A DNA stretch of 64,000 nt from Verrucomicrobiota bacterium (GCA_047947115.1 CP170459.1:2560001-2624000); one strand, 5' to 3'; counted from the stretch's first letter, positions 3,741-49,299 are shown. Translations and numbers: made by a program. Notes: generated by a model not told the origin, from the letters alone.

Positions 3741-6403
3741 AATTGACTGAGAAGACGCCTCTTACTTTTGAAGATTTTTGCTCTATGACCGTTATCCAAA
3801 AAATGAACTTTTTCGCTTCAGTCCTGTCTTGCACCTTGATCTTGTTGGGTGCTGCGGGCTGCGAACGTCAGGAGAACACTCCTGTTCCGGCAGCTCCAGC
3901 TCAACAAGCCGGCGGGCGTATGGCGGTGCCTCCGCCAGCCGAAGTGAATGGGATCGCCGATTCGAATGAGGCTCCTGTCTTGTTTATAAGCGAATTTCTC
4001 GCAGCCAATGATCAGGGGGTGGAAGATGAAGATGGGGATCGTCTGGATTGGATTGAAATCTATAACCCGGGACAAAAGCCCGTGGATCTGTCTAAATACG
4101 GTTTGACGCAGGATCGCCAGTTGGAGACTGTGTGGCCGATGACCGGTATCCTGTTGGGGGCAGGAGATTTTCAATTGATCTTTGCGTCTGGAAAGGACCG
4201 ACGAGAAGCCGGGGGTGAATTGCATGCCGATTTCAAGTTAAGCAATCAAGGAGAGTTTCTCGCCCTGGTATTGCTTGATCCCCGTCAGTTGGTTCATGGA
4301 TTCGGATCGACCTACCCGTCTCAGCAGAGTGATGTGTCTTATGGCATCTCGGCTGATTGGAAAGCCGGCGAGTTTCTTGAGGATTACGAAAGCTTTTTCC
4401 TGAATCCGACTCCAGGGTCAACCAATGGGGACATTCTTTTCGGATTTGTGGAGGACGTCGTGGCCAGTCATGAACGCGGATTCATGGAAACTCCCTTTGA
4501 ACTGACCCTGAGCACGCCGACTTCTGATGCTGTGATTCGCTATACCCTAGATGGCTCAGAGCCTACCTCTGAACACGGTAATGTCTATGACGCTCCGATC
4601 CAGGTGGAACGTTCTTCAGTGTTTCGGGTGGCCGCATTCAAAGATGGGCACCACCCTTCCGACATTGAAACGCTGACCTTTTTGTTTTTAACTGATGTGG
4701 TGAAGCAGTCTCCCGATGGTTTGCCGCCTGTTGGTTTTCCTTTTGAATGGGGGCAGAATTTTGTGGATTATGGTATGGATCCGGAAGTGGTCGAAGATCC
4801 AGCCTACTCAGCCAGCCTTATCAAAGGGCTGCGTGATTTGCCTGCCATGTCCATTGTGATGGATGTTCAGGATTTGTTCGGCGAGGAAGGGGGTATTTAC
4901 AGCAATGCGGGTCGAGACGGACGTCAATGGGAGAGGCCTTGTTCGGTGGAATACATGTTTGCCGATGGTAAAGATGGATTTCAGATTGATTGTGGAATAC
5001 GCATCAGAGGCGGGTTCAGTCGGGCCCGCATGAATCCAAAACATTCTTTCCGCTTGTTTTTTCGGGATGAATACGGACCATCCAAATTAACCTACCCTCT
5101 GTTCGGGGGCGATGGAGTGAAGAAGTTTGACAATATCGATCTTCGCACCTCCCAGAATTACAGCTGGAGTTTCGGTAGTGACGGAGAGCATGGATTGTTC
5201 GTCAGAGATTTGTTCAACCGCGACCTCCAGCGCGCGATGGGGCATTTGTCCCCTAACGGGGAATTTTGTCATTTGTTTATCAACGGCGCCTATTGGGGAC
5301 TTTACAATACCTGCGAACGTCCGGAAGCTTCGTTTGCTTCGGCTTACCTGCCGGGTGGGAAGGATGATTTTGATGTGATCAAAATCAACAATGGATCGCG
5401 AGAAGAACGAACTTTCGCCACCGATGGTAACACCGATGCCTGGCAGAAACTTTGGAGTTTAGCTCGTGACGGTGTGGCATCCAATGAAGCCTATTTCAAA
5501 TTGCAGGGAAAAAATCCGGATGGCACGGATGATCCGGAAGGGACCGTCCTGCTTGATGTGGATAATCTGATTGATTACATGTTGATCATTATCTGGTCCG
5601 GAAATAAAGACGCCCCCGTGTCCGCCTTTATGGGGGATAATGGTTCCAATAACTGGTATGGTTTTCGTAATCGAAAGGGGCGCGAAGGATTCCGGTTCAT
5701 TGTCTGGGATGCCGAGCATACCATGCTCAAGGAGGATTTGGAAATTGATCGGACAGGACCATTTCCGGCAGGGCGGGAATTTTCGACCAGTAACCCTCAA
5801 TACATCTGGCAACAATGCCAGGAGAACCCGGAATTTCGACTGCGGGTCGCCGATCGCATCCATCGACATTTCTTTAACCAGGGTGTGTTGACCGTGGCGC
5901 GCTTGATTCAGCTGTTTGACAATCGGACTAAGCAAATTGAAGATGCGGTTATTGCTGAATCCGCTCGTTGGGGAGACTCCGATGGGCCCAGATTTGGTGG
6001 AGGCGGTGACAATCCGGGAATGCCTCTGGGTCGAGACGAACATTGGCGGAAAGTGGTGGAATATACCCGCGAGGAATACTTGCTAAAAAGGTCGGACATT
6101 GTCCTGGCCCAACTGTTCGCCCATGGGCTCTATCCTGATTTGGAACCTCCCAGTGCTTCGAGATCTGGTGAAGGAGCGGCAGCCCAATGGGTGATAAGCG
6201 CCCCAGCTGGTGATGTTTTCTACACACTGAATGGTTCCGATCCGCGTCAGGTGGGGGGAGACAGAAGCGCTGATGCATTGGAATACTCTGGCCCGATCAA
6301 GGCCGATGATTCGATCCACACGATAAAAGCTCGATCTTATCTGAACGGTGAATGGAGCGCTTTGCTGGAGTTGGAGTTGCTCTCGGCTCCAGCCAATCTC
6401 TAA
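3737..6403 (+). CDS. CotH-kinase family lipoprotein with lamin-tail and Fn3-associated domains
   Basis: Lipobox-like LLGAAGC; LTD motif ISEFLAAN..DEDGD..DWIEIYN; IRYTLDGSEP; CotH-type RIRGGFSR..PKHSFRL, YWGLY..CER, WDAE. Confidence 0.8.
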   Translation: MKLTEKTPLTFEDFCSMTVIQKMNFFASVLSCTLILLGAAGCERQENTPVPAAPAQQAGGRMAVPPPAEVNGIADSNEAPVLFISEFLAANDQGVEDEDGDRLDWIEIYNPGQKPVDLSKYGLTQDRQLETVWPMTGILLGAGDFQLIFASGKDRREAGGELHADFKLSNQGEFLALVLLDPRQLVHGFGSTYPSQQSDVSYGISADWKAGEFLEDYESFFLNPTPGSTNGDILFGFVEDVVASHERGFMETPFELTLSTPTSDAVIRYTLDGSEPTSEHGNVYDAPIQVERSSVFRVAAFKDGHHPSDIETLTFLFLTDVVKQSPDGLPPVGFPFEWGQNFVDYGMDPEVVEDPAYSASLIKGLRDLPAMSIVMDVQDLFGEEGGIYSNAGRDGRQWERPCSVEYMFADGKDGFQIDCGIRIRGGFSRARMNPKHSFRLFFRDEYGPSKLTYPLFGGDGVKKFDNIDLRTSQNYSWSFGSDGEHGLFVRDLFNRDLQRAMGHLSPNGEFCHLFINGAYWGLYNTCERPEASFASAYLPGGKDDFDVIKINNGSREERTFATDGNTDAWQKLWSLARDGVASNEAYFKLQGKNPDGTDDPEGTVLLDVDNLIDYMLIIIWSGNKDAPVSAFMGDNGSNNWYGFRNRKGREGFRFIVWDAEHTMLKEDLEIDRTGPFPAGREFSTSNPQYIWQQCQENPEFRLRVADRIHRHFFNQGVLTVARLIQLFDNRTKQIEDAVIAESARWGDSDGPRFGGGGDNPGMPLGRDEHWRKVVEYTREEYLLKRSDIVLAQLFAHGLYPDLEPPSASRSGEGAAAQWVISAPAGDVFYTLNGSDPRQVGGDRSADALEYSGPIKADDSIHTIKARSYLNGEWSALLELELLSAPANL

Positions 6404-6439
6404 ACCGAGATTCTCCTATGCTTTCAGACCGAGTGTGGT

Positions 6440-7339
6440 ATGGTCTGGCTTATGAACTTTATGAAACGTAACAAGGAAAAATGCCTATGGTTTTTTCTTT
6501 GTCCGGCCATTTTGATTTTCCTTCCATCGCAACACTGCGCCGCCCAGCAGGAGGGGATCATCAAGGCCACGCATGTTGCTGGCAGTGTGCACATGCTTGA
6601 GGGGCGCGGAGGCAACATTGCTGTCTCGGCGGGTGAGGATGGATTGCTGATTGTGGACAATCAATTCGCCGACCTGGCGCCTCAGATCGAAGCCAAGTTG
6701 GCGGAGTTAGGCAAGGGGGACCTGAAGTTTGTGCTGAATACCCATTTTCACAACGATCATACCGGAGGGAATGCTCATTTTGGTAAGAAAGCCACCATTG
6801 TCGCCCATGAAAATGTTCGGGAACGTTTGGAGGGGAAAAACGATACGCCAAAAGCGGCTTTGCCTGTCATCACTTTTCGTGAGGCTTCTTCGGTGCATTT
6901 TAATGGGGAGGAAATCCGTTTACTCCACCTTGGGCCGGGGCACACGGATGGTGACGTGATTGTCTGGTTTACCGGGTCCAATGTCATTCACATGGGAGAC
7001 CAGTTTTTCAATGGCCGTTTTCCTAATATCGATCTGGGTAATGGCGGAAGCGCCGCCGGGTATCAGAAGAATGTCAACACTGTCCTCAAGCATCTGCCCG
7101 AAGGGGTCCAGATTATTCCTGGACACGGTGCGCTGGCGAGCAAGGATGACTTGGCACGGTTCGCTTCCATGTTGTCCGATACAATCAATCCTGTTCGTCA
7201 ATCAATCAGCCTGGGCAAAACACTTGATCAAATCAAAGCGGCCGGTGTGGATGAACAATACAAGACCTGGGGTGTTGGTTTTATCAATACCTCCCGCTGG
7301 CTTGAGATGGTTTACAATTCCTTGACTTCGGAACCCTGA
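6440..7339 (+). CDS. MBL-fold metallo-hydrolase (cyclase-like), secreted
   Basis: THFHNDHTGGN, GHTDGD, HMGD and IPGHG metal-binding motifs. Confidence 0.85.
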   Translation: MVWLMNFMKRNKEKCLWFFLCPAILIFLPSQHCAAQQEGIIKATHVAGSVHMLEGRGGNIAVSAGEDGLLIVDNQFADLAPQIEAKLAELGKGDLKFVLNTHFHNDHTGGNAHFGKKATIVAHENVRERLEGKNDTPKAALPVITFREASSVHFNGEEIRLLHLGPGHTDGDVIVWFTGSNVIHMGDQFFNGRFPNIDLGNGGSAAGYQKNVNTVLKHLPEGVQIIPGHGALASKDDLARFASMLSDTINPVRQSISLGKTLDQIKAAGVDEQYKTWGVGFINTSRWLEMVYNSLTSEP

Positions 7340-7402
7340 TCGTGACGACTCGGTCCGTTCTCCAATACAACCATCATCATTGATTCGTAGCGTCCGCGAT
7401 TC

Positions 7403-10400
7403 ATGGAAAAAGCAACCGGAACCTGGCATATCTGGGCCGATACGGGAGGCACCTTTACGGATTGTCTCGCGAGGAATCCTGCGGGGCGACTTCGTCGCGC
7501 CAAAGTTTTGAGCAGTGGCCGCCTGCGTGCGCTCGTGCTTCAGGTGGCCGATGACAGGTCTCTGCGCCTCGCGGTGGCTGCGGAAATTCCCGACGGTTTT
7601 CTGGACGGAGCAAAGTTGGTGATTCCAGAAACAGGTCATACGGTGGGAACGGTCAAGTCTCACCTTGCTGTCAACGGCATGTGTCATTTGACGGATGACG
7701 CCGAGGGTTCTCTGAAAACGGGGGATTTGGTGGAACTGGACTTTGACGAAGAAGCTCCCATCCTGGCGGCCAGGGTGGTGACCTTGACTCCGTTTAACCA
7801 AAAGCTACCCCCATGTGTGTTCCATCTGGCCACGACCAAAAGCACCAACGCATTGTTGGAACGGAAGGGTGATCGAACGGCATTTCTCGTGACAAAGGGG
7901 TTCAAGGATCTGCTTCTAATAGGAGATCAAAAACGTCCACATCTCTTTGATCAGTTGATTCAGAAAAATCCACCATTGCACGAACTTGTTTTCGAAGTGG
8001 ATGAGCGTCTTGACTCTGGGGGCAATGTTTTGAAATCTCCAGCCGTTTCAGAACTGCAATCCATGGCTGATCAATTGATCCAACGGGGGATCAAAACAGT
8101 GGCCATTGCTTTTCTGCATGCTTTCAAGAATCCCCGGCACGAAACCATGGTGGCTGAGTTGTTAAGGTCCTGTGGAATTGCATATGTTTCCTGTTCTTCT
8201 GATTTGGCGCCTTTTGTTAAGTTGCTTCCTCGTGCTGAAACCGCCGTTGTGAATGCGTATCTTACGCCTTTGATGCAGACCTATCTGGACCAGGTTGAGC
8301 AGGCGTTGGGAGAGGGGCTTTTTCGTATTATGACGAGTGCGGGAGGATTTGTCTCTCGTCGTGATTATACCGCCAAAGACAGTTTGCTGAGCGGTCCGGC
8401 GGGAGGATTGGTCGGCGCTGCCACGGTTGCGAAACAGTGCGGGGAGCTGAAGACCATTGCTTTTGACATGGGAGGGACGAGCACGGATGTGGCCAGGTTT
8501 GATGGGAAATATGATTACCAATTCGAACAGCGCATCGGTGGGGTGCGCCTGCTATCGCCGTCCCTCAAGATTGAAACGGTTGCTGCCGGAGGCGGATCCA
8601 TTTGTCATTTTCATCATGGAGCGTTTGAAGTGGGGCCGGAAAGTGCGGGGGCTTCGCCGGGGCCTGCGGCTTATGGCGCAGGGGGGCCTTTGACAATCAC
8701 CGATGTCAACCTGCTCCTCGGCAGGATGGATCCGGATATGTTTGGCATACCGGCGGATGTGCAAGCTTCGTCGTACGCAGCGCTTGAGGTGCTGAAATCT
8801 GTGGATGCAGATCGGCGGCGGCAGTTAAACCTCGAAAGCATGCTCCAGGGTTTTTTGGAGATTGCTAATGAACGCATGGCCGATGCCATCAGGGGGATCT
8901 CCGTTCGGGAAGGGTATGACCCTTCTGAATATGCATTGACCGCTTTCGGTGGAGCCGGAGGACAACATGCGTGTCGTATTGCGGAAATGCTGGGCGTGGA
9001 TCGGGTACTGTTTCCGGCGGAAGCGGGATTACTGAGCGCCTATGGTCTGGCTCACGCCCGCATGGAACGATTCATCGAACAGCAGGTGTTGGAGGTGTGG
9101 GATGAATTACAAACGTCCTTCGAAGATGTTGTGCGCGAATTGGAGGAGCAGGCAAGACAAGCGTTGTTGAAGGAAGGATTGGATCCTGATTGGGTGTCGA
9201 TTTCCCGTCGTATCGTGCAATTGCGTCTGCTCGGACAAGAGACTGCTGAGTCTGTGGACTGGAATCCTGATCTGGATTTGATTCGGGCATTTCTTGAGCG
9301 TTATGAGGAAGTGTATGGATATTTGCCCGAGAACAAACCGGTTGAAATCGTCTCCATTCGTGTTGTATCCACGACGCGTGCTCTCAGTGTGGAATCAGAA
9401 GTGTTTGCATCTTCTCGTTTGGCAGAACCACGAAAGTCGATCAGAAGTTTCATCAACGGAACCTGGCAGAGCATTCCGGTGTTCAGTCGGGACGTGTTGG
9501 TTCCGGGGGATGACATTCAGGGACCGGCTTTGGTTCAGGACCGTTTCAGTACTTTGTCCATCGACACCCATTGGAGAGCGTCCGTAGGTTCGGCTGGAAC
9601 ACTTCGAGTGGACCGTGTTGTGGTAAAGCAAAAGGATCGAACTGCCGATGCTTCTTCCTGTGCCGGGGATATGGAATTGGAACTGTTCACGCATCGGTTT
9701 TTCCAATTGGTGGAGGAGATGGGGTTGATGCTCGAGCGCACGGCCATCTCAACCAATGTGAAGGAGCGGTTGGATTTTTCCTGCGCGTTGTTGGATGCCG
9801 AAGGAGAACTGATCGCGAACGCACCCCACATTCCGGTTCATTTAGGAGCGATCGGCTTGTGTGTGCGCCGAGTTGCGGCCGATTTTGAGTTGAGGCCGGG
9901 AGATATGATCGTGACCAACCACCCGGGTTATGGTGGATCTCACCTGCCGGATGTGACGGTGATCAGTCCGGTTTTTGATCGTAAAAATGTTCTGATTGGA
10001 TTCGTGGCCAACCGGGCGCACCATGCGGAACTGGGTGGCATCCGTCCGGGATCCATGCCTCCCAATGCAGGTCACCTGGGGGAAGAAGGCGTGGTGATAC
10101 CTCCGACCTACCTTTATCGTGAGGGAAGACCTTGTTTTGAAGAACTGGAGATCATTTTGATTCAGGCCGAATACCCCTCGCGCAGCCCTGATGATAACAT
10201 GGCCGATCTGCAAGCCCAGGCTGCCGCCAACCGTAAAGGGGGCAATGCGCTTCAATTTCTTGTCGATACATACGGATTACAAACGGTGCAGGGATACATG
10301 CGAGCGGTGAAGGAACATGCGTCGAAGTTGCTTTCCGAGCGGTTGGCCATGTTTGAGCCGGGTGTTTACCAAGCGGAAGAATCCTTGGATGACGGGGCGC

Positions 10401-11227
10401 TGCTCAAGGTAAAGATCACTTTGTCCGAAATGGGGGCCGCTTTTGATTTTACCGGGACATCGCCCACACATCCCGGTAACCTGAATGCGACTCCGGCCAT
10501 TGTGCACAGCGTCGTGTTATACGTGTTGCGGTTGTTGCTGACAGATAGCATTCCTTTAAACGAAGGGTTGTTGGAACACGTTAGAATGACACTGCCATGC
10601 TGCATGCTGAATCCTGTGTTCGACATGGAACCCGATCGATGTCCGGCGGTGGTCGGTGGCAATGTGGAGACGAGTCAACGTTTGGTGGACTTGTTGCTCA
10701 AAGCGTTGAAGGTGATGGCATGCTCGCAGGGAACGATGAATAATCTCATCATTGGCAATGACAAGGTCAGTTACTACGAAACTGTTTGTGGTGGTGCCGG
10801 AGCCAGTGCTCGGGGAGCGGGCGCGGATGCCGTCCATACCCACATGACCAACACAGCCATCACCGATCCCGAAATCCTTGAAAACCGATATCCCGTGCGC
10901 TTGCACCAATTCGAAATTCGAAATGGTTCCGGAGGAGACGGAAAACACAGGGGTGGGGATGGGATTGTGAGGACACTGGAATTTCTGGAACCGCTTGCTC
11001 TTTCGCTTTTGACTCAGCATCGAACATCCGGACCCTATGGCATGGATGGCGGTTTGGCTGGTCAGACCGGCCGTCAGCGACTGATGCGTCAGGGTGGTGA
11101 GGAGGTGGAACTGGCCCCGGTCTGTGGCACGGAAGTTTTGCCGGGAGACAGGCTGATCCTTGAAACCCCGGGCGGAGGCGGGTATGGTAGCCCCTGTGAT
11201 TCAAAGGTGTCATCCAAGGCTACTTGA
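7403..11227 (+). CDS. ATP-hydrolysing 5-oxoprolinase (fused hydantoinase A/B-type)
   Basis: [66 protein letters not shown]. Confidence 0.9.
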
Positions 11228-41791: not shown

Positions 41792-42655
41792 TCACCTCCG
41801 GCGCGTGGATCGTTCCTGCATCCACAGGACGTCCGAGTTCTTGGGGGAAGTGATGTTCAAGGGGCGATCCCGTTTGGTGACGGGAGGGAAGGTGCGGGAA
41901 TCCCGCCATACCTTGATTTCGGAGTGTCCATCAGCAAAAGACAGGGTGGCGGCTTTGTTGTGGTAGCTGGCGGGTGTGTTGACCAATCGATGTCGTTCCG
42001 GTTGATCTGGAAAACCCGCCATGTCCACGACAAAGAAACCGTTGTTGATGCTGTCTTCGCGTTCATCCATGAAGACCCAGGTCATCGCCGGACCGGGATC
42101 CTTGATATCGCCCATCATGCGATAAGCCACCCATCCGTGCTTGTCCCGAGGATACCATGGCCCACCATTGCCCCATCCGGCTCCGCCCACCCAGTTGTTG
42201 ATGGCCATGCTGCGGATGCGGGGGACACGTTGGTTTTGTCGATTGATTCCGTAAGATTTATCGCTGGGGCATTTCCAAATGCCGATGGATTCGCCGCAGT
42301 AGGGCCAAAGCGGGCTTTGACGTGTGTAACGGTCGTGATCCCAGTTGTTCGGGTCTCGCAGATCATTCAGGGTCAGCCAGCTTCCTCCTGTCCAATCAGG
42401 TGCGCGGGGATTTGCTCCTGGGGCTCCCTGCCAGGAACCGACCAGTTTGTCCTCATTATCATCCGCGTACCATCGCCAGGCAAAAGCCAACTGGCGATGG
42501 TTATTCATGCAAGTAATGGCCTGGGCTTTGATTTTAGCCTTGCTCAGCGCCGGGAGCAGCATGCCTGCCAGGATGGCGATAATGGCGATGACGACCAATA
42601 ATTCGATCAATGTAAACGCGCTTAGCGCTCTTGTGCCTTGCTGGTGACTCGTCAT
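41792..42655 (-). CDS. Prepilin-type N-methylation / H-X9-DG domain protein
   Basis: [26 protein letters not shown]-terminal [13 protein letters not shown]. Confidence 0.9.
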
Positions 42656-42852
42656 CAGTTGATGAAAATTTATGGATTGAGGATCAGCATGAACCCATTT
42701 TCTCAAAAAAGCAGCTTCTTTTGCAGTGAATTTTGAGGGGATCGTATCCTCTCCAAAAGCCCGCTTTGAGGGCACGCTCATTCGAAACCTTCAATTCAGA
42801 GAAATAAAACCTTGCGGTAACCAAGGTGAATCCATTAAGCAAGTGGGGCGTT

Positions 42853-42939
42853 GCCCGCGTGGCGGAATTGGCAGACGCGCTAGATTCAGGTTCTAGTCCC
42901 AGCAATGGGGTGCAGGTTCAAGTCCTGCCGCGGGCACCA
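42853..42939 (+). tRNA. tRNA-Leu(CAG); probable island insertion site
   Basis: GCCCGCG/CGCGGGC acceptor stem, anticodon arm CTAGA-TTCAGGT-TCTAG, long variable arm, GTTCAAGTCC, CCA end. Confidence 0.95.
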
Positions 42940-43159: not shown

Positions 43160-44133
43160 ATGAAATACAACCAACCACTCGGACAAGAAGTATTCCAGCA
43201 ATTTCCAGAACATGAGTGGAATTACGCTGACCTTTACGGCAACGAAACAGAAATTCGGATTGCTACAATTTATGAGTATACCAGGTGTTGTGGCTGGATT
43301 GCGGACAAATATGTTTCATGGCTTGACTCCCCAATTGAAGTTGAAAACTCAGATGCTATAGGCGGTTTATGTGCACGGTCGGATGGACTTTCCACGGCCA
43401 GGAAGCTACTTGCGTCCATCCAGGAATCGGACCCTAATGATCCCCCAAAAAAAAGGATGTTAAGGATCTTTTTCTGGCTCTCACTTTGTGTATGCCAGAA
43501 TGTTTGAAGGGACACTCATTGACCACTCAAATGTTGCATCTCGTGGAGTTCCCATCCCCCTTCATGAAGATCCGTAAGTCATCTTGGTTCCCCACTATCA
43601 ACCAATTTGACAATGCTATTTGTGAATTTATAAACCGGGGCGAATTGTTCAATAAGCCAGAGAAGAATTGGCCAGTAAGTAAGATTCTGAAAGTCCATCA
43701 GGACTTTGAGGAGGTAACAATCGCGATAAACTGGAACAAGAGGGACAAGGCAATTCTTGATGATCTAAAAAGGTGGATTAAAGAATCAAGGCCTATCCCG
43801 GAACCTACTTCACGTAACAGAGAAGCAGGTTACCCATTAAAATCTCTAGCCGCTCAAAGACTCAACCAAGCTTTTAAGCAAAGCCAAGTCAGCCCAATCA
43901 ATATTGCGTCGTGTCTTAAGGAAATTTTCGGAAATGACATCAAATCCAAAGCTGTCCAAGAGTTAGTTCCATATTACGAGGAGCAAGGGGCGGTCAGCCG
44001 TGCGGCCAAAGACTGCTTAAAATATATCCAGGATAGAATCGCATTCTATTGGCAATATGGAGACAGCACTGACACCAAACGAATCGCCATACCTTGGGGC
44101 CCAGACACGCCTTTAAAGGAAATGGACTCCTGA
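43160..44133 (+). CDS. Hypothetical island protein split in two frames at a C5A8 run (43160-43507 and 43441-44133)
   Basis: The second frame is open from 43441, exactly at CCCCCAAAAAAAAG; a -1 shift or one extra A gives a single ~324-aa ORF. Confidence 0.55.
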
Positions 44134-44193: not shown

Positions 44194-44472
44194 ATGAAAC
44201 AAATAACACAAATAACGCAACCAAACCCCAAAGAGGCTGTCCCAAACAAGCCAGAATTCATCCGCCTGCCCAAAGGTGGACTCTGTCCATACACCGGTCT
44301 GTCCCGGTCTAAACTAAACCAGCTCATCCTTCCCTGTGAGCAAAATGATTGGAAGCCTCCGGTAAAGTCAGTTTGTCTCCGCCAGCGCGGAGCGGTCAAG
44401 GGCACAAGGTTGATTCTGCTAGAGAGTCTCTTGGACTACCTCTACAAACAGTTGGAGGAGGGTGCAGAATGA
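44194..44472 (+). CDS. AlpA/excisionase-like small DNA-binding protein
   Basis: EFIRLP..G.CPYTGLSRSKL..L HTH-like pattern and C-terminal GTRLI...SL..YL typical of island Xis-like proteins. Confidence 0.7.
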   Translation: MKQITQITQPNPKEAVPNKPEFIRLPKGGLCPYTGLSRSKLNQLILPCEQNDWKPPVKSVCLRQRGAVKGTRLILLESLLDYLYKQLEEGAE

Positions 44473-44660
44473 CTGGGATCGGTTATCAACTCCGCAAGCA
44501 GAGGGTTAGGCGCCCATTAGGTCGGTATACTCTAGTTGCGATTGTTTACTCGCTTGCGAACGATTTTTTGCGCCCGCGAAGAAATGGCGGAAGGGCTAGA
44601 TTTTTCAACCACACCAGAGGCTTCTAGACCTTCCTCTACTACATGAATTTCTCGGTAAAA

Positions 44661-45005
44661 TTATCGGAAGACCCTGATAAAAATACGGGTCGTAATTATT
44701 CCTGCTCAAATGCTGATCCCGCCGCAAGCGTTTCTTGCTGGAAGTCCGCTCCCGGCGAAACCAAGCTCCAAGTGCGCGACCCGAAATCGGCAAAAAAGGT
44801 CTCGCGGATCCGTTCAGCCAAACTGAGCGGTTTTAATGTAGCTGGCCCGTATCTACGCCTCTTTACCCTCCCTTGGCCCTTAAGACGCACCCGTGACTGG
44901 GTGAAACGGAATTTAAGGCACCTATAGAGGCCTTTTTTGCAAAGAATTTCCGTTCTGGGGGAGTTTGTTTCCGCTGCAAGGTGACGACAGCGGGAAGGCT
45001 TCTCA
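44661..45005 (+). ncRNA. Candidate structured RNA or structured leader upstream of the polA operon
   Basis: At least seven hairpins and two long-range closing helices found by eye, many needing G-U pairs on the + strand. Confidence 0.45.
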
Positions 45006-45052
45006 AGGGCGTTAGAAACCAAATAAAACAACAAAATCGTCACCACCATAAT

Positions 45053-45679
45053 ATGATCATGAAAACCGAATCGATACAGGAGGCGCCAGACGCCATCGAA
45101 ACCAATCTCAACCCATTCGCCAACCTTGACGCGTTCAAGGTCGGGCAGGACTTCAACGAGTTTGAAACAGCCGTTGACTACTCGGTTATACCGTTGCGTA
45201 AACCGGGCAAGCAACAGTGGTTCAGGGTTCACGCCGAACTCAAGCTAGACAATGTTTGCTTCCTTGAAGTGGAACAGGATGAGGGATCGCCCGAAAGCTT
45301 CCTTCTGACAAACAGTGTCGCACTACAACTCAGGGAGCTGCCCGGGATTTCCAAAAGGGGCCTGCGTCTCTGTGTTTGCCGGCCCAACAATGCGCCATTT
45401 GTTTGGGCAATAAAATTACCTAAGGGAACTGGGACCAAGCATGACGATTGGGGGCGTTCAGCTTTAGATGCAGCCAATATAGCGGAATCGAAATGGATCC
45501 GGATGAACGCTGACATGCAGTTGGGTGCCTACAAGCTCTTCAACTCAAAGGCGAGTTGGGAGGAGCCTGTTTGGCCAGCGCTTGATATCACGGAAATATT
45601 GAAACGGTCAATTGGTGAACAACACATCATCTCATCAGTCGACCACCCGGCCGTCCGGCAATTACAAGGGCTCGAATAA
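45053..45679 (+). CDS. Conserved-looking hypothetical protein translationally coupled to the polymerase
   Basis: Start at ATG 45053 or 45059; TAATG stop/start overlap with polA; motifs PLRKPGKQQWFRVH, W..SA..AA..A...W.R, EP.WP, DHP. Confidence 0.75.
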   Translation: MIMKTESIQEAPDAIETNLNPFANLDAFKVGQDFNEFETAVDYSVIPLRKPGKQQWFRVHAELKLDNVCFLEVEQDEGSPESFLLTNSVALQLRELPGISKRGLRLCVCRPNNAPFVWAIKLPKGTGTKHDDWGRSALDAANIAESKWIRMNADMQLGAYKLFNSKASWEEPVWPALDITEILKRSIGEQHIISSVDHPAVRQLQGLE

Positions 45680-47418
45680 TGAGAACGCTCAGCCAGTTCG
45701 AGGAAATTTGGGTCGTCGATTTCGAATTCCGCTCTACCGATGGCGAACTACCATCTGTCCACTGCATGGTGGCGAGGGAATGCAGAACAGACCGGCTCAT
45801 TAGGGTCAGTTTCGAGGAACTTTCTTTGATGAAGGAAGCCCCTTTCGACACAGGCCCCCATTCGCTCTTCGTGGCATTTTATGCACCTGCGGAGTTTGGT
45901 TGTTTCCTCGAACTGGGCTGGGATCTCCCGACTAACACCCTCGACCTCTACGTCGAATTCCGATTACTGCTATGCGGAACAAGCGCAGAAAAAAAATTCG
46001 GACTGGTGGCCGCTCTCAACCATTTCAATTTGGCACAACTCATCCCAAGTGAAAAACAGGAATGGCGTGAGTTGGCAATGCGTGGTGGGCCGTTTTCCGA
46101 AAGCGAACGGGACGGCCTGTTGGAGTATTGCCAGCAAGATGTAGATGCCACAACGTTCCTGCTCCGCTCGATGGCGAAGCACATCCACACTCCACACGCG
46201 CTGATCCGTGGTCGTTACATGCAATCGGTCGCCCGGATGGAGCAAAATGGAATCCCCCTCGACACCTGTCTACTCGCGGAGCTCACTGGGAAGTGGGACG
46301 ATATCAAGACCGCATTGATTGATATGACGGACAGTTACAACGTGTATACCGATGGAGCATTCTCTGAAAAACAATTCGAGAGGTTGCTTGCGAACCAACG
46401 TATAGCGTGGCCTCGGCTCCCATCAGGGCGTTTAGAGCTGACAGACGATGTCTTCCGGAAGCAAGCTCAGGCTCATCCTGATGTGATTGCACCGTATCAT
46501 GAACTACGCGCCTCCCTGAGCCGCTTAAAATTGTCTAGTCTCAGTGTTGGCCCCGACGGCCGCAACAGGACCATGCTGTCCCCGTTCCGCTCCGACACGA
46601 GCCGCAACCAGCCCAGCAATTCCAAATTCATATTTGGACCGTCGACTTGGATCCGCGGTCTGATCAAGCCACCTCCAGACAGATTCATAGCTTACATTGA
46701 CTGGAGCCAGCAGGAGTTGGGTATTGCTGCGGCACTATCCGGGGACAAGAAAATGATGGAGGCTTATCTGTCGGGGGATCCCTATTTGAGATTTGCACAA
46801 ATGGCAGGTGCCGTCCCTGATCATGCAACCAAACAAACTCACCCGGCGGAGAGGGCCGCTTACAAGGTATGCATGCTGGCTGTGCAGTATGGAATGGGCT
46901 CGAATTCATTATCCCAACAGTTGGGCAAAACTCGTCATGACGCAAACCGTCTCCTGCAAGCCCACAAGGATACATTCCCTGACTACTGGAGGTGGAACCG
47001 AAGGATACTCGACCAAGGATTCGGCAGCGGGCAGCTAAAAACGACATTTGGCTGGCAGCGGTTTGTAGCTTCTGACGCCAAACCAGCGAGCGTAGGAAAC
47101 TTCCCGGTTCAAGGGAACGGTGCCGAGATGTTACGGCTGGCGATCATCAAAATGCATGAAGCGGGAATTCAGGTTGCAGCCCCTATCCACGATGCTGTTC
47201 TGGTTGAAGGCTCCTGTGAGAACATTCAGGAGATTGTATCCACAACTCAGCTATGTATGCGGGAAGCTTCCACCATTATCCTGAATGGATTCGAGTTGGA
47301 ATCTGACGTCAAGGTGGTGACATACCCGGATAGGTATATGGACGAAGACAGGGGTGTCCAATTCTGGAACAACGTCATGAGTCTAATCGGTAGGGAGGAG
47401 TGTCACTACCAACTCTAG
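45679..47418 (+). CDS. Stand-alone family A DNA polymerase (3'-5' exonuclease + polymerase, no 5' nuclease)
   Basis: ExoI VVDFEF, ExoIII YCQQDV; motif A DWSQQE, motif B RAAYK...QYG, NFPVQG, motif C IHDA. Confidence 0.9.
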   Translation: MRTLSQFEEIWVVDFEFRSTDGELPSVHCMVARECRTDRLIRVSFEELSLMKEAPFDTGPHSLFVAFYAPAEFGCFLELGWDLPTNTLDLYVEFRLLLCGTSAEKKFGLVAALNHFNLAQLIPSEKQEWRELAMRGGPFSESERDGLLEYCQQDVDATTFLLRSMAKHIHTPHALIRGRYMQSVARMEQNGIPLDTCLLAELTGKWDDIKTALIDMTDSYNVYTDGAFSEKQFERLLANQRIAWPRLPSGRLELTDDVFRKQAQAHPDVIAPYHELRASLSRLKLSSLSVGPDGRNRTMLSPFRSDTSRNQPSNSKFIFGPSTWIRGLIKPPPDRFIAYIDWSQQELGIAAALSGDKKMMEAYLSGDPYLRFAQMAGAVPDHATKQTHPAERAAYKVCMLAVQYGMGSNSLSQQLGKTRHDANRLLQAHKDTFPDYWRWNRRILDQGFGSGQLKTTFGWQRFVASDAKPASVGNFPVQGNGAEMLRLAIIKMHEAGIQVAAPIHDAVLVEGSCENIQEIVSTTQLCMREASTIILNGFELESDVKVVTYPDRYMDEDRGVQFWNNVMSLIGREECHYQL

Positions 47419-47485
47419 CCCCATAGAAAATTATTAATAGACCACTAGGATATCATAACAAGATTATAATAAGAAGGGGACGGGT

Positions 47486-47573
47486 CGACAAAAAAGCAGA
47501 GGTTAGGCGACAAAAGCGCAGAGGTTACACGACAAAATGGCAGAGGTTGCACGACAAAATAGCGGAGGTTGTG
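47486..47573 (+). repeat. Four tandem 22-bp iteron-like direct repeats preceded by an AT-rich tract
   Basis: cgacaaaaaagcagaggttagg / cgacaaaagcgcagaggttaca / cgacaaaatggcagaggttgca / cgacaaaatagcggaggttgtg. Confidence 0.9.
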
Positions 47574-47611
47574 GCGGGTTCGACGTCGGGGATTTGATGA
47601 TGGAGGAACGA

Positions 47612-47935
47612 GTGACATTGGACGAACCCAAGACGTCCCCCACTTCAAAGGGCTCGAAAAGGCCGCAGCAACGGCCGTTCATTAAGGGGCCAATTGATTT
47701 GGAGTGGATGCAGGAGGCGTGCAAGGCAAATGCTGCCCCCATGGCTCTCTATCTCCAATACAAGCAGGGGATTTTGGGGAAAGGCGCAAGGATTCAAATC
47801 CGTCCTTCCGAGTGCAGGGAATTCGGAATGAACGATAGGGCCCGACAACGCCAAATTGACAGCCTCGCCTCTGTGGGCTTGATCGTGGCGGACAGAGGCA
47901 ATGGCCGCTGCCCGGTTGTGGAAGTGATTACCTAA
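47612..47935 (+). CDS. Small winged-helix DNA-binding protein (candidate replication initiator)
   Basis: GGAGG at 47602-47606 before in-frame GTG 47612 (ATG 47597/47600 also possible); C-terminal FG...RA..R.I..L...GLI...R..GR.P wHTH-like pattern. Confidence 0.65.
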   Translation: MTLDEPKTSPTSKGSKRPQQRPFIKGPIDLEWMQEACKANAAPMALYLQYKQGILGKGARIQIRPSECREFGMNDRARQRQIDSLASVGLIVADRGNGRCPVVEVIT

Positions 47936-48073
47936 GAGGGTGGTTGATTGAACCTGTCGCCCAGCCAAAAGAGCCACTATTTAAGTTCCCGCATTCTAGA
48001 TGGTTAGCAATATAACGAACAACGAGCCAACGACACATGGCACAGTCTTGTTGGGACAGGCGGTTTCCTAAAA

Positions 48074-48101
48074 ATTTAACGCGTATACGTTAATGTTAAG
48101 G
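48074..48101. other. dif-like 11-6-11 recombination site candidate
   Basis: ATTTAACGCGT-ATACGT-TAATGTTAAGG; right arm matches the E. coli XerD arm TTATGTTAAAT at 8 of 11 positions. Confidence 0.4.
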
Positions 48102-48138
48102 TTCATAAAAACGAAGACTTTCACTTGGGTTTCAGCGC

Positions 48139-48768
48139 TCAACCCCACAACCCCTCAAACCGCGCTGCAGCTACCCGGGTATAATGGGCCGTATGTTTAG
48201 GGTCTCTGTGCCCCAAATAATCCTGTATCAGCCGCAGGTCGTAGCCCTGATTGGCTAGGTAGAAACCACAAGAGTGGCGAAGCGTATGAGGGTGGACATT
48301 CGCAAGCCCAGCTTGCTCTGCCGCTCGGGCAACGATGTAGTTGACCGACTGCCTCGTCAGAGGCTGGTCACGTTCACTCAGGAACAGCCACGGTAATCCA
48401 CTGGTCCGCTTTGCCAAGTATCGCTTGATAGCCCGCAACTCGTCCCCGGGAATAGGCTGCTCCACGGATAATCCGTTTTTGAGTCGTTTGACCCACAATC
48501 TAGCCCGCTTCAGCTTAACGTCGGAAACTCGCATGGATACGGCTTCACTGACACGTAGACCGTGGCGGTAAACCATCATCAGCAACAGGAAATCTCTTGT
48601 TCCGTGACGACCTGCCTTTGCCGCAGCCAGCAGTTGGTCCATTTCGGTTTGATCGAGGTAATCCTTGTTCCGGCTGCGCTGGTCAGCAGGGAGCGTTGAC
48701 TCACTCTTTACATTTCGCCTTTTGGCAAGCCTCTTCGGCCTGGCCTTAACTTGTTCGTTCTCAGTCAT
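48139..48768 (-). CDS. FimB/FimE-like small tyrosine recombinase
   Basis: RHGLRVSE (R), HPHTLRH (HxxR), LGH and Y in HYT; catalytic domain only, no N-terminal binding domain. Confidence 0.88.
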
Positions 48769-48959
48769 GGGAATGACCTGACTTTAAACCTTTTGAGCTA
48801 TTTGTAAAAAGTTATCTCCAATAAAATGCTGATTTCGGAGGGAGGGGGGGGCGTCTGGCTGAGTTAAACATGCAGAAGAGGCTTCGGGTCCCATCAGCCA
48901 CTTTTAATGAGTTTGAAAAACTCATTACCTCCCCCCACTCCGAGCTGAATAGTGGCGGC

Positions 48960-49299
48960 AAGAATGAAGAATGCCAAATCAATTCAAGCCCAGATGATAT
49001 GCATGGCTCACAATTTAAGTCTACTCATGGAAAATACCTTGGAACGGGATCATGGCGTAGTCAACGAAGCGGAGGAAAAACGTCGTGAAGACCGGTTGAA
49101 GAAAATGAAAAAGGTGGCTAAAGCGGCGGGCCGTCAATGGTCCAATGTGTATGATCGCGTCCGAAGGTTCACTAAACGAAGTCTGAAATTCTTCCGCACT
49201 CTGAGGGCCTATTTCTTCTTAGTCTCCTAGACGTCGCAAATGGCGGCCCGTCTTCGGCAACTCTACGCAGAGTTATGACCTGAATGTTTCACAACGATC
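48960..49299 (+). pseudogene. 3' remnant of a probable IS4-like transposase with internal TAG, plus element end
   Basis: K..QA..IC.AHNL C-terminal pattern; frame continues past TAG 49228-49230 to TGA 49276-49278. Confidence 0.5.

Follow-up and report, generated by a model that had tools for sequence, protein, structure and literature searches.

A conserved cassette of a family A DNA polymerase, a partner protein, tandem repeats and a winged-helix protein: a candidate replication module of tRNA-integrating elements

The stretch of DNA analyzed here (hereafter the window; 64,000 nucleotides, CP170459.1:2560001-2624000 of assembly GCA_047947115.1) belongs to a Verrucomicrobiota bacterium with a genome of 6.08 Mb in a single contig. 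It contains, next to a gene for tRNA-Leu(CAG) (42853..42939, + strand; identified by ARAGORN, and by Rfam RF00005 with 55.3 bits), an island for which this tRNA gene forms the left border and the likely integration target. The central part of the island is a compact cassette on the + strand, comprising a gene for a protein without family assignment (termed here B), a gene for a family A DNA polymerase (PolA), relatives of which carry Verrucomicrobiota labels, an AT-rich tract with four direct repeats, and a gene for a small winged-helix protein (termed here W). The original prediction, made from the sequence between positions 44194 and 47935, had placed a PolA-centered replication module in a tRNA-Leu island without recognizable primase or helicase. 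The tRNA gene is indeed there, and among the open reading frames (ORFs) of the island no primase, helicase or Rep protein was scored in Pfam, PHROGs, NCBIfam or PADLOC, these library scans having put names on two island proteins only, the polymerase and a tyrosine recombinase. We found B-PolA-repeats-W to be conserved as a unit that is associated with tyrosine integrases and with tRNA genes.

The polymerase (45679..47418, +) is a protein of 579 amino acids (aa) with 3'-5' exonuclease and polymerase domains, which matches PF00476 with 94.8 bits (cut-off 34.3; 6.8e-27) and phrog_17 at 1.7e-44. Comparison of its profile with the PDB returned 8jrb_A, annotated as "DNA polymerase I" (3.4e-26), Taq (3e-25) and Klenow (2.8e-17). 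In an alignment of 18 diverse relatives (alignment A1) the exonuclease motifs DxE (residues 14-16) and YxxxD (residues 150-154) are invariant, and so are D341 of motif A, R392, K396, L400, Y404 and G405 of motif B, and H504, D505 and A506 of motif C. The motif positions were obtained from the HMMER alignment together with the Klenow numbering; position 150 of the profile pairs with residue 174 of the Klenow fragment, and the acidic residue of Exo II was assigned only tentatively. As the N-terminus lies directly in the 3'-5' exonuclease region, the protein has no 5' nuclease domain, which agrees with the original description. Its catalytic activity is assumed here. The same genome also encodes a 948-aa frame with weak similarity to the polymerase, which we have taken for the chromosomal Pol I, and on that assignment the polymerase of the element would be an additional one. 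Of 8,000 protein clusters scored, 7,826 match, which makes this a very large family, yet its occurrence in the own phylum is sporadic, with matches at E<=1e-40 in 4 of 301 sampled genomes, the genome of the window counted.

Protein B (45053..45679, +; ~207 aa) likely starts at ATG 45053 or 45059, as indicated by the alignment with its relatives, which gives a length of 206-208 aa. Its stop codon TAA at 45677-45679 shares one base with the ATG of the polymerase, forming the TAATG junction by which, as had been noted before, the ~207-aa protein is coupled to the polymerase. B could be assigned to no family in Pfam, PHROGs, NCBIfam or PADLOC and to no sequence relative in the PDB, and those of its homologs that bear names are all called "hypothetical". 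The conserved residues are aromatic and basic, with none of the acidic ones invariant, a pattern more in line with a binding function than with an enzyme. The fold is predicted to be beta-rich, and B is possibly an OB-like binder of single-stranded DNA (ssDNA), a weak prediction; its structural matches are below the noise level. We also considered a PH domain, suggested by a language-model lead (0.89) alone, and rejected it, the list of structural matches giving no support. One relative of B (P0351, 318 aa) carries an HTH_17 domain and thus represents a fusion of the excisionase-like protein encoded upstream in other loci (see below) with B, which hints at a joint action of the two.

The polymerase gene is followed by an AT-rich tract (47419..47485), a candidate unwinding element and/or promoter, whose best 40-mer has 78% A+T, a value reached by only ~1% of 77 other 250-nt segments. 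Next to it are four iteron-like direct repeats of 22 bp (47486..47570, +) with the core CGACAAAANNGCAGAGGTT, detected by TRF with period 22, 3.9 copies and a score of 114. The 19-nt core has four matches with 0-1 mismatches in 47486-47570, against 0.24 expected from shuffles, and a fifth match, with 3 mismatches, is found elsewhere in the window. Both the tract and the repeats had been part of the original description, as had a small protein with a winged helix-turn-helix (wHTH) domain downstream of them. The latter corresponds to W (47537..47935, +), which comprises 132 aa if translated from ATG 47537 or 112 aa if translated from ATG 47597. The start is uncertain, because the first ATG falls in repeat 3, which would then encode MAEV (likewise in the related loci L109 and L114), ATG 47597 is preceded by GGGGA, and conservation as well as model confidence is low over the first ~45 residues. 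The profile of W matches the wHTH of FadR/GntR at 7e-4, and the predicted model has one generic winged helix of ~85 residues, the nearest folds of which include many repressors. No match of W was found in Pfam (including the Rep families), NCBIfam or PHROG.

Relatives of the cassette were collected by an alignment-based scan with one genome per species (a scan of contigs with a single protein as query gave none). It yielded 515 confirmed stretches among 598 pattern matches, with ~830 estimated in total. According to the record titles, they come from Planctomycetota, Verrucomicrobiota, Beta- and Gammaproteobacteria (Pseudomonadota), Myxococcota, Bdellovibrionota, Nitrospinota and others, with the reservation that the labels of metagenome-assembled genomes can err. 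To these 15 loci from viral collections and 80 metagenome loci were added. ORFs were clustered from 181 loci (L001-L008 were excluded as duplicates of longer stretches), 174 of which have a clustered polymerase ORF. In these 174 loci, the families that recur within 4.5 kb of PolA are PolA itself (174), W (142), B (129) and a tyrosine integrase (86), every other family being present in at most 9 loci. Of the loci whose contig leaves room for the gene, 118 of 134 have B and 136 of 151 have W, and the stop codon of B overlaps the start of PolA in 93 of 127 cases, the overlap measuring 4 nt in 51 of them and 1 nt in the other 42. Within this distance of PolA there is neither a recurring primase or helicase family nor a recurring third large gene, and 57 neighboring ORFs scanned gave no helicase match.

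The taxa listed above also call to mind a eukaryotic protein. A nuclear-encoded eukaryotic polymerase, abanPolA, is derived from a "PolI" clade of Planctomycetes and Myxococcales according to the passages on its origin in Harada et al. 2024 (PMC10877234). These source taxa match the taxonomic spread of the element-borne polymerase.

The cis-acting part of the cassette is conserved in place and period, while its sequence differs from clade to clade. Using TRF with a score of at least 50 and periods of 19-26 bp, we found a tandem repeat between -120 and +300 of the PolA stop codon in 34 of 164 loci, compared with 0.011 per 420 nt in the remainder of these loci. These repeats have periods of 21-24 bp and 1.9-3.9 copies, and many contain an internal inverted repeat. 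The clade of the window (L109, L110, L111 and L114) keeps a repeat unit of its own, and L109 has retained all four repeats. In 62 of 153 loci, the 40-mer with the highest A+T content anywhere in the locus is found in this same zone at the PolA stop codon, and the zone falls in the top tenth for A+T in 98 of 153, with ~15 expected; certain loci of Planctomycetota have a short repeat of 14 bp as their AT-rich part. B, W, repeats of 21-24 bp and the AT-rich tract thus recur across phyla without a recurring primase or helicase family, so that the synteny check proposed for homologs of the polymerase had a positive outcome. Of the cis/trans architecture as first conceived, the conserved unit stands, and the structured leader with its RNA component has to be given up (see below).

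Many loci show features of integrative elements. In 47 of the 174 loci the cassette has a tRNA gene no more than a few kb away, many different tRNAs being used, and in most of these 47 loci an integrase adjoins the tRNA. The order is either tRNA-Int-(HTH)-B-PolA-W or B-PolA-W-Int-tRNA. In 8 loci we found direct repeats of 20-45 nt derived from the tRNA, spaced by 5,394-9,284 nt, which corresponds to the size of the element. The small ORFs located upstream of B belong to different clusters in other loci, and several of them score with HTH_17 or AlpA.

The genome of the window has a second, more complete copy at a tRNA-Ser(GCT) gene (C1:3848255-3854220; 5255-11218 of locus L009). This copy encodes a 381-aa integrase, a 271-aa ORF, an HTH_17 protein, B, a polymerase 59% identical to that of the window, a repeat, W and an 89-aa ORF. 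Its repeat consists of 2.5 copies of a different 22-bp unit, and the two W proteins have 46% identity over 76 aligning residues. This genome thus contains two related cassettes whose repeats differ. A gene for a protein with a prepilin-type N-terminal cleavage signature precedes each of the two tRNA targets (329 and 328 aa; 41792-42781, - strand, in the window and 4198-5184, - strand, in L009), and the two genes are paralogs, sharing 121 nt at 81% identity, so that both islands occupy similar local contexts.

The cassette is also present in prophage-like surroundings. In four IMG/VR loci it lies upstream of the genes for the small and the large (GpA-type) terminase subunits, two of the four, as far as they were fetched, also including an integrase and one a portal gene, and the 29 ORFs scanned in these viral loci gave no match to a PHROG primase or helicase. 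In phages, replication genes usually sit upstream of those for packaging. When 50,697 phage records were searched by tblastn at E<=1e-20, a single record matched, with a distant relative of the polymerase in an isolated 43-kb Silvanigrella phage, so the family is not close to named phages. The record of this phage contains masked stretches. Terminal overlap, which would indicate circularity, was seen in none of 20 contigs of close relatives, a weak test because most of these contigs are fragments.

Taken together, these observations make it on the whole probable, with ample room for doubt, that B-PolA-repeats-W is the replication module of small tRNA-integrating elements and of related prophages. 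After excision of the element, W would bind the tandem repeats of 21-24 bp beside the AT-rich tract and open the DNA, and the circle would be copied by the element's own family A polymerase, which has retained the 3'-5' exonuclease motifs and, lacking the 5' nuclease, is presumably strand-displacing. The overlapping stop and start codons would ensure that B and PolA are made in a fixed ratio. B would hold the template and may permit primer-independent starts, as MP does for CcPol in SCCmec; alternatively, the primer may be supplied by a transcript or by the host primase, and host functions would provide for the remaining needs. We infer that the module replicates autonomously, and that W acts as its initiator and not as a repressor.

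Several observations weigh against this interpretation. In motif C the polymerase has HDA where HDE is usual, and in motif B a Leu replaces the Phe of Pol I. B possesses no invariant acidic residue. At the threshold used, a minority of the loci (the 34 of 164 mentioned above) gave tandem repeats, the control for the AT-rich zone is lenient, since intergenic DNA is AT-rich in general, and the locus counts are not independent, as they include near-duplicates, the window and its paralog. Furthermore, the polymerase was found at E<=1e-20 in none of 72,556 plasmids of PLSDB, so the module is not known as a stand-alone replicon. Finally, the repeats lie directly 5' of the gene for W, one of them holding its first ATG, which would also fit plain autoregulation.

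The last two points, together with the many repressors among the nearest folds of W, would fit an explanation in which W and the repeats form only a transcriptional switch, i.e. an autoregulated repressor or activator with tandem operators, the origin being elsewhere or the element not replicating itself at all. PolA and B would then serve an accessory synthesis, e.g. the conversion of incoming ssDNA into duplex, or the filling of gaps at excision or integration. Second-strand synthesis after uptake is indeed raised for pairs of PolA and an ssDNA-binding protein (SSB) in the discussion of such pairs in PMC10061031 (Rice). We consider a mere switch rather unlikely, given that three to four evenly spaced units of 21-24 bp beside the most AT-rich stretch of the locus exceed the usual simple operator, and that the prophage-like loci, in which no other replication gene was recognized, have the cassette upstream of the packaging genes.

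This position in the prophage-like loci, by the rule given above the usual site of replication genes, also speaks against a function in defense or counter-defense, in which the polymerase would make DNA that interferes with phages, as defense-associated reverse transcriptases do. We regard this as very improbable. It is prompted by the match of the polymerase to the PADLOC family PDLC03816 "RTasPolA" (DRT) at 1.3e-27, a label that we treated as a generic PolA-domain match; the score is of the same size as that of the Pfam PolA family (6.8e-27). Small integrative islands often bear defense genes, and the possibility is raised for PolA-SSB pairs in the corresponding part of PMC10061031 (Rice); however, the island has no reverse transcriptase or other PADLOC family, and the cassette is the conserved core of the elements rather than their variable cargo.

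Of the replication module a stronger version can be conceived, in which B and PolA would together constitute a primase-polymerase that needs no helicase and that W brings to an iteron origin, starting de novo and proceeding by strand displacement round a circle of 5-9 kb. We hold this version to be unlikely. If it were true, three small genes and ~150 bp of cis-acting DNA would form a complete portable replicon, functional in at least half a dozen bacterial phyla.

The region upstream of B in the window has turned out to differ from its original description as an Xis/AlpA-like HTH gene followed by a densely structured non-coding segment of ~340 nt. The first ORF (44194..44472, +; 92 aa) sits where relatives carry HTH_17 or AlpA excisionase-like proteins, which score with these families at 1e-5 to 2e-10. 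The 92-aa protein has no match in Pfam even at E 10, and compared with the positional HTH_17 proteins of the relatives it reaches an hhalign probability of 0.1. None of its 197 homologs has a precomputed Pfam domain, and one source names one of them AlpA. With the position and this one name in its favor, the Xis/AlpA label is unproven.

The gap between this ORF and B (44473-45052) is 580 nt long, has no match in Rfam, and folds no better than shuffled sequences (z-scores of -0.33, -0.42 and -1.51). In the middle of it we found a gene, termed here S (44643..44927, +; 94 aa), which has a homolog in L114, with 70% identity across 73 aa, and a partial one in L126. Comparison of S with its L114 homolog over 62 aligned codons shows 23 that are identical, 26 with synonymous changes only and 13 that change the amino acid. 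The differences are distributed over the three codon positions as 11/7/33, i.e. 33 of 51 fall in third positions, and the other two reading frames are full of stop codons. The absence of an Rfam match, the ordinary folding and the coding signature in mid-segment led us to reject a structured RNA leader, and with it the RNA component that had been suggested for the module. S belongs to no family in the library scans and has no Atlas match, and a jackhmmer search across all fetched ORFs returned the window and L114 only; an 89-aa ORF in the equivalent position of L112 is unrelated. L114 itself calls for some caution, as its two contig ends (1-40 and 5190-5227) translate to peptides that we take to be sequencing-adapter read-through, and its first 1 kb, which contains a penicillin-binding-protein-like ORF, may accordingly be a chimeric join. 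The spacer of 125 nt between S and B (44928..45052, +; fold z-score -0.42) is conserved in three loci, extended invariant stretches being seen when the window is aligned with L114 and L126, and is a candidate regulatory region, possibly the promoter or operator of the B-PolA operon.

Between the tRNA-Leu gene and the 92-aa ORF there are two overlapping ORFs of 115 and 215 aa (43160..43507 and 43486..44133, spanning 43160..44133, +), without assigned function and specific to this copy. Neither could be assigned to a family of Pfam, PHROGs, NCBIfam or PADLOC, and neither has a relative among the fetched loci or elsewhere in their own genome. We considered that they might be a frameshifted version of the 271-aa gene of the paralogous island, and dismissed it, the BLASTP similarity being nil.

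On the other side of the cassette, a tyrosine recombinase of 209 aa is encoded on the opposite strand (48139..48768, -). It has the size of FimB/FimE and matches PF00589 at 2.3e-44 and NF007370 at 2.3e-52, the latter below the cut-off of the model. The closest relative of the window locus, L109, has a polymerase 94% identical at the protein level, and its DNA is 92.6% identical (blastn) across 45621-48974 of the window, a block that takes in the repeats, W, the small recombinase and the surrounding DNA before the two sequences diverge. The conservation of the recombinase inside this block indicates that, in this clade, it is part of the element. The blastn alignment ends at 48974, which places the right border of the element at or before this position, and past it the gene content of L109 differs from that of the window: a 92-aa ORF of the window (48952-49230) is presumably the tail of a transposase, and a 348-aa ORF of L109 (4766-5812) is one that we take to be an IS66-type transposase.

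No direct repeat of the tRNA-Leu gene's 3' end, i.e. no second attachment (att) site, was found for the window island, and the integrase that complete relatives carry next to the tRNA is absent from this tRNA-Leu, so the mobility of the copy may be impaired. B, PolA, W and the repeats look intact and the ends look decayed, which makes continued movement doubtful. This raises the question whether the whole island is the decayed remnant of a satellite or prophage that has lost excision and replication, its genes being kept merely by recent descent. The two missing features, of which the integrase is present in the paralogous island and in many relatives, would fit such a remnant, and so would the transposase-like fragments at the right border and the two left-hand ORFs unique to this copy. 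We find it distinctly unlikely, because the small recombinase is full-length, as are B, PolA and W, the 92.6% DNA identity to L109 over 45621-48974, the 94% identity of the polymerases and the retention of four repeats fit continued constraint, and the small recombinase may act as the integrase of this clade; moreover, decay would concern the mobility of the window copy, not the function of the cassette. Elsewhere in the window (15761-15949, +), a tRNA-Ala(TGC) gene is followed by a tRNA-Ile(GAT) gene, the reverse of the order Ile-Ala of most bacterial rRNA spacers.

We found no published description of the B-PolA-repeats-W cassette in the full-text literature, subscription journals and supplements being outside the coverage, and its partner genes are annotated only as hypothetical. 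The size of the family, its presence in several phyla and the lack of annotation make the cassette of real interest. If it is a self-contained replicon, it would be the family A counterpart to pipolins, and would extend the idea of priming by PolA and a partner beyond Bacillota, in a helicase-free form. It could also provide a compact broad-host replication unit for phyla without genetic tools, such as Planctomycetota and Verrucomicrobiota, and the paired divergence of repeats and W would offer a natural system for the study of origin specificity.

The nearest precedent of the cassette is found in SCC elements, the PolA-SSB primases (CcPol-MP) of SCCmec and related islands in Bacillota being reportedly the subject of a study by Bebel from 2020. 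A primase made of PolA and a small ssDNA-binding partner is already in print for these elements: as summarized in the relevant sections of Rice 2023 (PMC10061031), CcPol is an A-family polymerase that needs the small OB-fold partner MP to bind ssDNA and to prime de novo. The discussion there also describes the final helix of the thumb as shortened in PolA-SSB primases. In both cases an A-family polymerase is encoded on an integrative element beside a small beta-rich partner (predicted as such for B) without sequence family, and according to the same sections of PMC10061031 some of the polymerases of the SCC type keep an intact 3'-5' exonuclease and catalytic residues, and replication after excision is the role proposed for them. 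There, the gene order is Pol-SSB-helicase with the helicase always present, the integration is carried out by large serine recombinases at rlmH or ssrA, and the hosts are so far all Bacillota; here, in contrast, the order is B-PolA-repeats-wHTH without a recurring helicase, the elements have tyrosine integrases and tRNA targets, and the records are labeled as belonging to several phyla. B is also different in its length of ~200 aa and its only weakly predicted OB fold, and the attached unit of repeats and wHTH is a feature of the present cassette. The two systems are set side by side here by their description, not by sequence kinship.

In its cis-acting part, the cassette resembles theta replicons with iterons (Pi of R6K, RepA/RepE; RepA_N of staphylococcal plasmids), where a winged-helix gene and an AT-rich tract likewise adjoin tandem direct repeats spanning some two helical turns, the repeat sequences diverging together with the protein. 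Unlike their initiators, W contains a single winged helix of ~85 residues and matches no Rep family of Pfam, and unlike iteron plasmids, which use host polymerases, the elements bring a polymerase of their own, one that was not found on PLSDB plasmids. Phage satellites (PICI, P4-like, PICMI) are comparable in having 5-9 kb, an integrase and an excisionase-like HTH protein, and relatives of the core genes of the cassette occur in full prophages; the replication unit of PICI has repeats at the origin. To our knowledge, the satellites described so far carry a primase-helicase or a Rep protein, and a packaging or capsid-redirecting gene was not recognized in the cassette elements. For SaPIs, a primase-helicase or Rep protein is stated in PMC10061031, in the part that deals with them.

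Pipolins, as characterized in the descriptive parts of PMC7385651 and PMC11551731, and other self-synthesizing elements are small and integrative, often occupy tRNA genes, and encode a tyrosine recombinase as well as a DNA polymerase of their own, and in all these respects they are like the elements studied here, which differ in that the polymerase is of family A, instead of a primer-independent PolB, and is accompanied by a dedicated partner gene and an iteron/wHTH unit. As to the polymerase itself, the account of phage-type PolA subfamilies in Czernecki 2023 (PMC10201439), which sorts PolA into 19 clusters, reports Leu at motif B3 in several of them, such as the SPO2-like and KPP25-like ones. 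These share with the present family the exonuclease and polymerase domains in ~580-650 aa, the absence of a 5' nuclease, Leu in place of Phe/Tyr at B3 (here L400) and the occurrence in phages or prophages, and the PolA cluster tables of PMC10201439 may already include members of it.

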